A stretch of DNA of 64,000 bases from Escherichia coli 042 (lineage in GTDB: Bacteria; Pseudomonadota; Gammaproteobacteria; Enterobacterales; Enterobacteriaceae), in assembly GCF_000027125.1 (NCBI RefSeq), contig NC_017626.1; one strand, given 5' to 3'. The position numbers are program-made. How positions within the stretch are numbered: position 1 is the stretch's first letter; every line of letters begins with the position of its first letter. Shown piece by piece: positions 57,301-60,300 of the stretch.

Positions 57301-60300
57301 GTGCAGACCATTGCGCCGTCAGGAACGGTTTCAGTGAATTTGATATTGCCGTGTTCGTCGAGACGGATAACCAGGGTGCGTCCGTCCCCGTGAATCATTT
57401 TGTCGGGAGACGGGGCGTTATTCTGGCGCAGTTCTGCTTCCATGCGGTCGAACTCAGCAATGTATGCCTCTTTAAATGCAGCGGCTTTTTTGCCAGTGAA
57501 GCCCATCACCAGGAAAACGAAGCCGTTTTTGGTGATTTGGTACATTGGGAGTTTGCGCCCGGTTGAGTCGGTGTATTCGCTTGACACAAAATTGTGCTCA
57601 GTGAATTTTGCTGAACAGTCCAGATTGCGAATTTTATCCAACACTCGTTCGTGGCGTTTGCCAAAGAACTCGGCGATCGCAACAGACGTAGTGACAGCGC
57701 GACCATTTTCGATGGTTACGTCAGGGTGAGAAAGGGTAAGGATAGTAGCCATGATGGCAGCCTCCGCGATGAATTTGATTAACTCACCACCGAGGTTTTC
57801 CACGACCATAAGGGTGGTGAGACGTACAGGGGTGGAAATACCGGTCATCACGGAACCCGGCCAGCCTTGCGGCTGCCCTGCACGCCCCACCATAATGCGA
57901 ATGTGGCTGTGCTTAACGCATAAAAAAACCGCCTGAGCGCGGTTATGCGCCGTGAATGATTTCGGGTTTCCACGCCCGGCACCCGTTTTATGAGGTGCAG
58001 GTGCACTATAATTCCACCCGTTCTGGTTTTCAATAGCTACATTCAACATTTTCTCTACCTTTCATCACCGAAGTGAACTTTGTTGATGCGGTGCCTGGTG
58101 CCTCCAGGTGACGTTAACCAGTTAACAATTAACGTCGGATACAGAGCATTCCCGTTACGCCCGTAAAAGACCGCTTGTTTTAACTGTTCCGCGTGCGCTG
58201 AGCCGCATTCACCGCATCACAAAATTCACTTTAAAAAGGGCGGCAGAGCAGTCACGGAGTAGAACTGATACCGCCAAAAGTCACCAGAAAATTGATAACA
58301 GAGGGCGTTGCAGCGGAGTTGTCACTTAAGCGTATGGTCAACCTGACAACCCGGTGTCCTCAGCGGGGAAGGAATAACCCCGCCATACTTACCGCCGCGC
58401 CATTTCGCGGATTGCCACAACCGGAAGCGCACGGTCGAACTAAATTTAACGACACCGTACAGAGAGACCAATTTCGCCGTGCGCTTTCGCGTTATGCCCT
58501 GACTTTTCAGGGACATATCCTTTCAGTAAACTGTCAGTGCCGGATGCTCACCCGTGTCCGGCGCACGCACTCCACCTGACCCGTGGAGAACTCCTTAATT
58601 ACCAACCCTCAGGAGGGTGAAATGGATAAAAAGCAAATTGAGGCCCTGCAATCTATTATTGAAAAACAAGATGAAGCTATCAGGATTCTTTCATATCGCA
58701 CTGATATGATACTAAATATGCTTTCTGCATTAACGGCTGCGCTTGGTGGTACAAAAACAAACGTATACCGCGAAGTTGTTATTCAACAGATAGATAAATT
58801 TGAAAAAACCATACCAGGTATTAATGCTCATCTTGCAGAACAAGAGAAAGACCATGCTCTTATGGCAATTTCTTCAGTAGCTCTCCCGAAAGTTGAGTAG
58901 TTTTAATTGTTGTTTTGAAATAATCACTGCTTTCACATTTGAGTGATTTCATGGCAATCCAAATGCGGGCCACTGTGCCTGCATTTGGTTCCAGTTGCTG
59001 TAGACGTTTTGCGTCTTCCAAAAGTAAGGCGATAATGTGTTTCAGCTTCTCATCATTTGCTTGATTCTTGTTTTCAGGCGAATTCTGTCCGCCGAATAGG
59101 CGCTTCTCTTCATACAGACCTATAAAGGCACGACGCACGTTACCGGATATAGTATCGATGGTTTCCTTTTCTACAGTACTCAGGTCAAGAGTCGCCAGTT
59201 GAGAGCGAACCACATTCGCTGCCATTTCCTGGAATGGCATTGGTAAATCTTTAAATTCCATTATTAGCCTCGTTGGTTAGCTATTAACGTGGGTATGTAA
59301 CCATTCTGGCAATGCTTAATGCCGCTGCTTTTTCCAGCCTGGTGATATCCTGCTCCAGAGCGGACAGATTTTCAGCCTGCTTAGTCCTGGCTTCATTGGC
59401 CCATTTCAGATCCTGCACTGCATTAATTTTCTGGCGCATCCACTCATAAAGTTCATCATCGGTATAGTCTGGCGCGATGATGACGGGTTCTCGTTTCTGC
59501 ATACTGATTCCTCGCGGTGCTGTTTCGCTTATCAGCCGTTAGATTTTCCCGAACTGGAAAGCGCCTGTTTAAATTCACTGAAGCTGAGAGCTTCTTCGCC
59601 TTCGGCAAGACCATCGAAGTATTCTTCGTAAGCCTTTTCCATGATTGTGTCGAAATCCATATCACTCACCTGAGTTTCTTTCCAGCCAGCGACGGGCACC
59701 ATTTTCGGTTTTAAACGTTTTGCTTTTGGTATACGTCATCGCGGTGAATGTGCCGTCCTGGTTGGGAAACACGCCGTACACCAGAGATTCGTTGTTGCCA
59801 AGCTCGATAGTATCCATGCTGACCTCATTTCCCCTTAACGCCGGGTGGCGGAACTAAAACCTACAGCGCCGTGCTGTTCTTGATAGAAATATTAGTAACG
59901 CGGATATTTTAAGTCAACAGTATGGCGTATGATATTTTTGATTTGGTAACTATGTAAATGTTTTTTCAAGGGAAAAATATTAGTTATACAGCTGATTTGC
60001 AGAAGTTATGGCACAAAAAAACCGACTAAGACGTCGGTTTTTTTGTTGTGGATGGGGTAGTGAGCGGTGGCTACTGGTTACGTTTCTTTAGTGCCAGCAT
60101 GTTCTCGAAGGCTTCCTCGTAGAGCTTGTTTAGTCCACGTAGCTGGTTAAGGAGTTTGGCTTTTTCTGACGCAGGTAGAATCTCGAAGAGGTTAAGTAAC
60201 TCTGCCTGTTCTTCATTGACCAGCCTCCATCCTTTGCCTGAAAAGTTATCATCATAAGTATCTGATGATCTTACATAATTCATTAAGTCTTTAAGGTCTT

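Follow-up and report, generated by a model that had tools for sequence, protein, structure and literature searches.

A covarying, pseudoknotted four-way junction in the DicF precursor leader of an Escherichia coli 042 prophage recurs in other phage early operons

The window analysed here is a stretch of 64,000 nucleotides (nt) of the Escherichia coli 042 chromosome (contig NC_017626.1), the right-hand part of which is a lambdoid prophage. Within it, we studied the block at 58291–58621, which lies directly upstream of the small RNA (sRNA) DicF on the minus strand. This block had been described in an initial annotation as a GC-rich 5′ flank of the DicF precursor with several potential hairpins, and also as the upstream region of an antisense gene of 92 amino acids (aa). 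Its limits are exact, as 58290 is the 5′ nucleotide of DicF and 58622 begins the ATG of the 92-aa open reading frame (ORF). On the minus strand, the early-left region reads in the order repressor, ydfA/B/C, 133-aa ORF, block, DicF, isrK, C4, Rha/Ant-like gene, dicB, DUF1482/ydfD-like ORF and exonuclease (table 1). DicF itself is matched by Rfam family RF00039 at 58289–58238 (71.5 bits, E = 9e-14, gathering score 48), and ends in an intrinsic terminator (GGCGGTATCAG...GCCGCC, then TTTTT; ΔG −14.5).

Pairwise alignment identifies the block as the homologue of the ydfC–dicF spacer of the K-12 prophage Qin, a gap of 340 nt without any coding sequence (CDS). By megablast, the segment 58177–58607 is 92.9% identical to MG1655 and finds a match in 4,570 of the 5,426 complete E. 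coli genomes. Homology to the K-12 spacer starts at about 58609, and the sequence further 5′ on the minus strand is an inserted gene cassette. The two loci share the same ydfC–DicF position, some 93% identity and the same sequence at both nuclease sites, whereas the 042 prophage differs in carrying both a 133-aa/92-aa gene pair and an isrK–C4–Rha/Ant module. Thus, the locus and its processing are already known, and this copy departs from K-12 in its inserted neighbours only. DicF is among the oldest known bacterial sRNAs, and the dicBF operon, which encodes toxic cell-division inhibitors, is widespread in E. coli, including pathogenic strains. For Qin, Faubladier et al. reportedly described both the untranslated ydfC–dicF region and the DicF species of 190 nt as early as 1990. 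The accessible papers on K-12 Qin speak of a ‘long untranslated region’; a four-way junction, a pseudoknot and an occurrence outside DicF loci are undescribed in them.

Table 1. Features of the early-left region and of the DicF leader in the E. coli 042 window.
Feature	Position	Strand	Remarks
Host genes (rdlD, RtT, tyrosine tRNAs)	10–28 kb of window		
cI-like repressor	60532–60071	minus	
ydfA-, ydfB-, ydfC-like ORFs	ydfC 59502–59284	minus	ydfC family: phrog_1744
133-aa ORF	59261–58860	minus	phrog_1363, no assigned function
92-aa ORF	58622–58900	plus	ATG at 58622; convergent with the 133-aa ORF
Junction with inserted DNA	58610–58621	plus	includes Shine–Dalgarno AGGAGG (58611–58616) of the 92-aa gene
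Distal leader	58493–58609	minus	inverted repeats; three short hairpins: 58497–58512 (CCCUGA/UCAGGG), 58539–58562, 58570–58588
P0	58422–58491	minus	long imperfect hairpin abutting P1; homologue of the K-12 RNase III site
Core	58307–58421	minus	about 115 nt; four-way junction and pseudoknot
P1	58414–58421 with 58307–58314	minus	closes the junction (GUUGUGGC/GCUGCAAC)
P2	58406–58410 with 58395–58399	minus	short hairpin (CCGCG/CGCGG)
P3a	58391–58393 with 58353–58355	minus	GGU/ACC
P3	58378–58382 with 58364–58368	minus	hairpin; pyrimidine-rich loop 58369–58377
P4	58344–58352 with 58316–58324	minus	GGGUUGUCA/UGACAACYC; near-invariant 19-nt loop 58325–58343
Pseudoknot	58383–58388 with 58332–58337	minus	GUAUGG (between P2 and P3) with CCAUAC (P4 loop)
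A/U-rich linker	58291–58306	minus	GCCCUCUGUUAUCAAU; unpaired in the minimum free energy (MFE) fold; identical to K-12
DicF sRNA	58238–58290	minus	53 nt; 3′ domain of the unit, just outside the block
isrK	57998–57922	minus	
C4 antisense RNA	57897–57810	minus	
Rha/Ant-like gene	ATG 57752	minus	Pfam Phage_pRha
dicB	57184–56996	minus	Pfam DicB
DUF1482/ydfD-like ORF, then 823-aa exonuclease	3′ of dicB	minus	

The G+C content of the block is 0.547, which corresponds to the 98.5th percentile of the flanking 56.7–61 kb (mean 0.457, s.d. 0.045), but only to the 85th percentile of the whole window (85th–92nd when either the whole window or 45–64 kb is taken as reference). The richness in G+C reported initially is therefore a local property, and a moderate one for the prophage. 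The inverted repeats pointed out initially are there, and 58150–58700 contains thirteen of 6 nt or longer. The hairpin that it quoted (GCCGGA/TCCGGC, 58539–58562) is present, but belongs to the least conserved, distal part of the leader; the hairpin P0 and the four-way junction, which had not been singled out, matter more. Both strands fold with an energy below that of shuffled sequence (z = −2.47 for the minus strand, −4.43 for the plus strand). A comparison of 58150–58700 to Rfam with cmscan (E up to 10) returned DicF alone, and ARAGORN detected neither tRNA nor transfer-messenger RNA in the block.

The presence in the window of two ORFs, one of 64 aa on the minus strand (58516–58322, the longest on that strand) and one of 95 aa on the plus strand, might suggest that the block encodes a small protein. 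We regard this as scarcely credible. Indeed, start, frame and stop of the 64-aa ORF are intact together in only 3 of 97 distinct homologous spacers, most homologues having ATT or ATA in place of its ATG as well as in-frame stops. Variable columns show no codon periodicity either (21/16/16 by codon position in the ORF, 45/43/42 over the whole spacer). In addition, the spacing of the ribosome-binding site is poor, the ATG standing 1 nt after AGGA, and RefSeq annotates no CDS in the homologous stretch of six E. coli records. The lack of a credible ORF, already claimed for the block, is thus borne out.

The fold of the core was derived from a MAFFT alignment of 31 representatives (A3), from which a covariance model (R1) was built and used to re-align 48 representatives (A4). 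R1 matches the window at 58291–58434 on the minus strand (161.3 bits, E = 4.5e-46). Of all the cells given by 31 pairs in 45 distinct sequences, 97.1% hold a standard pair, versus 29–58% when the partners are slid by 1–3 columns. Thirteen pairs have changed on both sides, versus 5.3 ± 1.3 in shuffles, a value reached in 0 of 500 shuffles, and the MAFFT alignment gives the same picture of covariation. The repeats forming P0, P3, P4 and the pseudoknot recur with compensatory changes among the 48 relatives (P4, the pseudoknot and P3 being the inverted repeats I3, I6 and I7), so that the conservation of hairpins across homologous elements expected from the initial description is found, together with covariation. 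This comparative result is the best indication that the repeats did not arise by chance. In the pseudoknot, a U–A pair becomes C–G in phage P1 and RCS47, and U–G in F1055. Nearly all of 37 distinct P3 segments fold as a hairpin starting at nucleotide 1, 2 or 3. The resulting fold of about 115 nt appears to be undescribed in Rfam and in the accessible literature, a scope that leaves aside Faubladier and Bouche (1994) and the P1 genome paper.

Three other structural candidates were dropped. A pseudoknot joining the P3 loop to the GAGGA that comes next, seen by eye, fits the commonest variants and not others; a resemblance to 5S rRNA, also seen by eye, is unsupported by Rfam; and a long-range pairing of 58590–58621 with the DicF seed in the MFE fold involves inserted DNA absent from K-12 and many G–U pairs, and is not conserved. 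The P3 loop varies in sequence and length, with a pyrimidine fraction of 0.67–1.0 in all but one artefactual fold, and 17 of 28 distinct loops include CCUU, CUCC or UCCU, i.e. motifs resembling an anti-Shine–Dalgarno, versus about 6% by chance.

G–U pairs are frequent in P1 and P4, and would become A–C mismatches on the plus strand. The folded strand is therefore the minus strand, and the functional strand of the block is the same as that of DicF. This bears on the possibility that the block is conserved for its plus strand, which would either supply the 92-aa gene with a promoter and 5′ untranslated region or give rise to an RNA antisense to the DicF precursor. All the DNA upstream of the Shine–Dalgarno of this gene is indeed spacer, other plus-strand genes occupy the same junction in other prophages, the plus strand folds well, and a weak TTTTCA-17-TAAACT element (8 of 12 matches, by eye) lies at 58504–58532. 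A weak plus-strand promoter inside the spacer is thus possible. However, a sigma-70 scan of the plus strand of the block retrieved no consensus promoter, phages P1 and P7 carry the core with no plus-strand gene nearby, and the cassette is present in 125 genomes, as against thousands for the spacer, K-12 itself having no plus-strand gene there. As the block is kept in thousands of genomes lacking the 92-aa gene, this gene does not explain its conservation, and a selection acting on the plus strand seems quite improbable. Of the antisense arrangement initially proposed, the position of the block directly upstream of the ATG stands, whereas the promoter is unconfirmed.

Upstream of the core, the leader falls into two parts of unequal conservation. 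Among 96 distinct DicF-linked spacers, homology breaks at about 218, 278, 296 and 318–335 nt upstream of DicF, and in some lineages the distal leader is swapped for another sequence with hairpins of its own; the distal leader is thus a mosaic. Hairpin P0, next to the core, has two arms of 13 nt (58477–58489 and 58422–58434) that are 92% complementary. In 17 of 23 distinct variants, 10–12 of the 12 nt preceding P1 pair with a segment located 37–95 nt upstream, with compensatory versions such as GCGCACG/CGTGCGC, GCACACG/CGTGTGC, GCGCATT/AATGCGC and GAGGGCA/TGCTCTC. P0 is not present in some variants. The lambdoid versions carry it directly upstream of the core; phages P1 and P7 do not have it.

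In K-12, DicF is excised from the polycistronic dicBF transcript, and no internal promoter was found for it. RNase III makes the 5′ end of a 190-nt species, which is lost in a strain lacking this enzyme, is stable and accumulates in stationary phase, and RNase E makes the 5′ end of the 53-nt DicF, which needs this enzyme (all PMC10448788). By primer extension, the RNase III cut was placed ‘between positions 813 and 814’, and the sequence in Fig. S1 of the same paper spans P0 to DicF (PMC10448788). Two counts served to locate this cut in K-12. The first goes 190 nt back from the annotated 3′ end of DicF and leads to position 2246 of the K-12 locus (L004). The second takes as its start a point about 7 nt beyond a TTGACC-17-TAATCT promoter upstream of ydfA and, after 813 nt, leads to 2251/2252, the first nucleotide of P1. 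RNase III is accordingly predicted to cut in the 3′ arm of P0 or at its base, the equivalent in the window lying between 58428/58427 and 58422/58421. The window and K-12 agree in two stretches, one running from the P0 3′ arm up to base 1 of P1, the other through the linker to the start of DicF. RNase E prefers sites of the form R-N|W-U-U, which the linker end fits, as its 3′ end reads AAU|UUU with the cut placed between 58291 and 58290. Given this near-identity to a locus where both nuclease steps are established, the two cuts would be expected in the 042 prophage as well. The mapped K-12 processing sites and the conserved hairpins together bear out the initial view of the block, namely that the DicF precursor has on the minus strand a 5′ flank which is structured and does not code for protein.

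Past the DicF terminator, the sequence at 58150–58237 on the minus strand (AAAGTGAATTTTGTGATGCGGTGAATGCGGCTCAGCGCAC) is also conserved in K-12, Rac and a Rac-like phage. A 72-nt form of DicF arises from a second RNase III site (PMC5069750), and this segment is presumably the region of that site.

The core is not restricted to DicF loci. By blastn against phage genomes, it was detected without DicF in cdtI, Stx2c phages, 2H10, Salmonella phage F1055, the Rac-like ‘Actinobacillus’ phage, P1, P7 and RCS47. In every context examined, it is sense-oriented in a repressor-controlled early operon. Moreover, an intrinsic terminator follows the end of helix P1 within about 60 nt in 45 of the 48 representatives; inspection by eye shows a terminator hairpin of greater length in two of the remaining three, L155 being uncertain. 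In the window, this downstream terminator is that of DicF itself. The 3′ domain of the unit varies between lineages, and the core is near-constant. A pattern scan of genome contigs with GCGCGGCGGYAAGYATGGC yielded at least 120 matches, nearly all due to chance in GC-rich genomes; real among the matches listed were those in Escherichia albertii, E. coli, two Citrobacter, L341 and one probably mis-binned metagenome-assembled genome. The established taxonomic range of the core is therefore that of enterobacterial phages and prophages.

One of these settings is the leader of the ban operon of phages P1 and P7, itself an early operon under repressor control. The same core is found there, followed by a terminator, and its helices P1, P3 and P4 as well as its pseudoknot show compensatory changes, but neither the DicF seed nor P0 is present. 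It starts about 25–30 nt after the C1-controlled Pban start, so that the 5′ end comes from this promoter, and it precedes tRNAs, tciABC and ban; only some 18 nt separate the end of helix P1 from the terminator. A misc_feature of NC_005856, labelled ‘dicF-like region’, marks the ban leader and records sequence similarity alone.

Taken together, these results lead us to consider, with a probability of about 0.8, that this block belongs to a Qin-type dicBF early-left operon, in which it forms the untranslated leader of the precursor of DicF, and that the core is the 5′ domain of a two-domain RNA which recognises a host partner, rather than a passive spacer. According to this model, the repressor-controlled promoter would transcribe ydfA, ydfB, ydfC and the inserted 133-aa gene, then the spacer. 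RNase III would cut P0 at its base and detach the upstream mRNA, leaving a new 5′ end 0–6 nt from P1. The next 115 nt or so would fold into a compact four-way junction locked by the pseudoknot, and the DicF intrinsic terminator would set the 3′ end, so that core, linker and DicF would together form a discrete RNA about 190 nt long. RNase E would then cut the linker (AAU|UUU) and free the 53-nt DicF. More generally, the 5′ end of the core unit would be provided by a promoter in phages P1 and P7 and by an RNase III hairpin in lambdoid phages, with a terminator as its 3′ end. That both ends are provided for in all lineages is, in our view, the strongest argument for the unit being a discrete RNA, the ‘190-nt DicF’. 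The near-invariant loops of the core may bind a conserved host partner, since these loops and the pseudoknot are kept between P1 and lambdoid phages with unrelated flanking genes.

Some properties of such a unit are familiar. sRNAs excised by RNase III or RNase E also have an endonucleolytic 5′ end and a terminator 3′ end, and also lie inside an mRNA (PMC9438474), but their precursors have no known large conserved domain between the processing site and the sRNA. What is unusual here is that the part of the precursor retained in the 190-nt form is a conserved, covarying, pseudoknotted fold, absent from Rfam and present as well in the ban leader of P1 and in other early-left leaders. If the core has a function of its own, such as antitermination or the binding of a host factor, it could help explain how lambdoid phages without N express their early-left genes, and why the long form of DicF accumulates. 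As for RNase III hairpins in early leaders, the N leader of phage lambda has one.

Several points weigh against this interpretation. First, the two placements of the RNase III cut are 6 nt apart, and the figure of the K-12 study marks the position by colour alone. Second, the representatives were gathered by means of patterns taken from DicF or from conserved core blocks, so that the ‘invariance’ of these blocks is partly built in; the set selected through DicF, which is unbiased for core blocks, nevertheless contains the same blocks. Third, many of the sequences are close relatives, and the shuffle controls consequently overstate significance, the control with slid partners being the safer one. 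Finally, KilS of the K-12 prophage Rac is an sRNA made from a unit of this type which has no core, and the core is thus not needed for sRNA biogenesis as such.

The KilS locus deserves a closer description in this respect. Similar to the DicF unit, it precedes the gene of a cell-division inhibitor and combines a hairpin of the P0 type with a linker and a GGCGG... terminator; unlike it, the roughly 95 nt of core between the two strands of P1 are missing. K-12 Rac had been expected to carry the core, and R1 found no match in it; it was rejected as a core carrier, as it shows a clean deletion between the P1 strands with KilS in place (L375 3906–4120, NC_000913.3 about 1418405–1418620; deletion junction GGTTGT|AAATAACG). 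KilS was seen as an sRNA on Northern blots, and a promoter of its own was suggested (Bar et al. 2021, PMC8175672). Its annotated 5′ end falls in the 3′ arm of the P0-type hairpin, which suggests processing by RNase III instead of, or besides, an independent promoter.

Alternatively, the core could act in cis as a processive antiterminator, comparable to the put elements of phage HK022 although folded differently. RNA polymerase would be bound by the nascent RNA and thereby read through downstream terminators, the first being the one just behind the core, towards dicB or kil, recombination genes, or the tRNAs and ban of P1. put itself promotes read-through by way of the zinc-binding domain of the polymerase β′ subunit; what points to such an action of the core is its position, in an early operon and ahead of terminators. 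This idea is attractive because no N was seen in the early-left regions examined and because a terminator follows the core. Indeed, in every context examined the core precedes genes of its own orientation as well as the first strong intrinsic terminator. In phages of the cdtI/Stx2c type, no conserved feature lies between cI and the core, and none of the early-left genes tested that follow the core resembles N. Moreover, transcripts reading through to dicB exist in K-12 (PMC10448788), lambdoid phages without N are thought to require a put-like mechanism (PMC12315714), and near-invariant loops would suit the recognition of a conserved host machine. The put RNAs are likewise cis-encoded and structured, belong to the early operons of an N-less lambdoid phage, lie upstream of terminators and need no phage protein (PMC9378689).

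Several lines of evidence, however, do not fit with antitermination. put is about 70 nt long, with two stems and two copies per phage (PMC9378689), whereas the core has about 115 nt, a four-way junction with a pseudoknot, and one copy per element. No similarity to HK022 putL or putR was found: blastn-short against the whole of HK022 gave matches of 9–10 nt attributable to chance, one of them in putL, R1 had none in HK022, and homology to put was rejected. A second, divergent copy of the core in the position of putR was not retrieved by nhmmer or R1 at E values up to 5 in the 64-kb window and in about 5–7 kb of flanking sequence per locus, early-right flanks included. A weak R1 match on the C4 RNA (11.6 bits, E = 1.3) is at chance level and was discarded. 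In addition, an element tethered to the polymerase needs no device to generate a free 5′ end flush with P1, and K-12 Rac, devoid of the core, keeps kilR behind a similar terminator. We thus hold antitermination to be rather unlikely. The broader view that the core is an autonomous phage RNA family, forming a second class of protein-independent processive antiterminator, structurally unrelated to put, is rather unlikely as well; such a family would act on the host transcription machinery, and N-less lambdoid prophages (Qin-, Rac- and cdtI/Stx2c-type) and P1/P7 would use it to pass the terminator behind the core and so express toxic or early genes.

A conserved junction that is locked by a pseudoknot, closed by P1 and soon followed by an intrinsic terminator is also reminiscent of a riboswitch or attenuator, which could sense a signal and set the DicF terminator so as to yield either the sRNA alone or the sRNA together with the toxic DicB or Kil. 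By eye, several variants have GUUGUG or UGUUG after the 3′ strand of P1 (CACAAC), which could compete with P1, and in L212 a GUGGG...CCCAC hairpin overlaps the 5′ arm of the terminator. These candidate alternative pairings are nonetheless specific to single lineages, none being kept across lineages (by eye); the interval between P1 and the terminator is only some 18 nt in phages P1 and P7; core and terminator fold independently in MFE predictions; and no gene related to a ligand is linked to the core, whose neighbours vary widely. Such a sensor is accordingly improbable.

Lastly, once freed by RNase E, the core of about 130–137 nt could itself be a trans-acting RNA, as a decoy or sponge for a protein or RNA of the host or as a second regulatory RNA, with DicF merely co-transcribed. 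The unit has two defined ends and is split into its domains by RNase E, the 3′ domain varies while the core is near-constant, the 190-nt species is stable and builds up in stationary phase, and the pyrimidine-rich P3 loop carries the anti-Shine–Dalgarno-like motif in 17 of 28 cases. Conversely, this motif is not universal, P0 is missing in some variants, and a free core species is unreported, with no known target or partner. We consider this role doubtful as a replacement for the two-domain RNA, with which it overlaps rather than excluding it. Among the roles envisaged for the core, we thus rank a 5′ domain of a two-domain RNA, possibly active alone after the RNase E cut, above a put-like antiterminator, and the latter above a riboswitch-like attenuator.

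Apart from the core itself, several variants of its surroundings were observed. In one lineage (L131, L167, L341 and L201), the terminator hairpin is enlarged and encloses a Shine–Dalgarno and the AUG or GUG of a mini-ORF (MFCR... or MFYR...), which crosses the 3′ arm of the terminator and the U-tract; this mini-ORF may encode a leader peptide or provide a control coupled to translation. In cdtI/Stx2c phages (L128 and L134, about 2690–2790), a hairpin with a stem of about 20 bp (ACAAAACAGAGAAGA.../...UCUUCUCUGUUUUGU) directly follows the terminator of the core. It could be a second RNase III-type site, and the ORFs drawn across it may be spurious. Phage vB_Apl-pPE4 (L130 1982–2290) was deposited as an Actinobacillus phage, and its early-left region is Rac-like, with a DicA-like repressor, kil and exonuclease VIII; its core is followed by a tandem duplication of a segment made of a DicF-like linker and a terminator. 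The assignment of this phage to an Actinobacillus host looks doubtful.

Regarding the genes around the leader, the insertion that separates ydfC from the spacer is the convergent 92-aa/133-aa pair (58610–59261), with an overlap of 41 nt at the gene ends. The full length of the 92-aa product is covered by a match to phrog_18692 (E = 6e-63), and this product is a hypothetical protein in RefSeq strain cM8a; its gene contributes a Shine–Dalgarno of its own only, without a recognisable promoter. Different cassettes occupy this junction in other prophages, with plus-strand genes of 73 or 77 aa and minus-strand genes of 124–135 aa, and the ydfC/spacer junction looks like a hot spot for moron insertion. 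Between DicF and dicB (57195–58049, minus strand), the gap carries the isrK–C4–Rha/Ant module, where K-12 Qin has nothing. A promoter-like TTGAAA-17-TATAGT at 58033–58005 is consistent with an isrK promoter, and a 284-aa ORF spanning isrK and C4 is probably an artefact. Finally, the left half of the window is not prophage, as rdlD, RtT and tRNA genes mark it as host chromosome: two rdlD antitoxin RNAs, two RtT repeats and two tRNA genes were located at 10650–11251 and 27383–27943, i.e. in the ldr/rdl and tyrTV regions.

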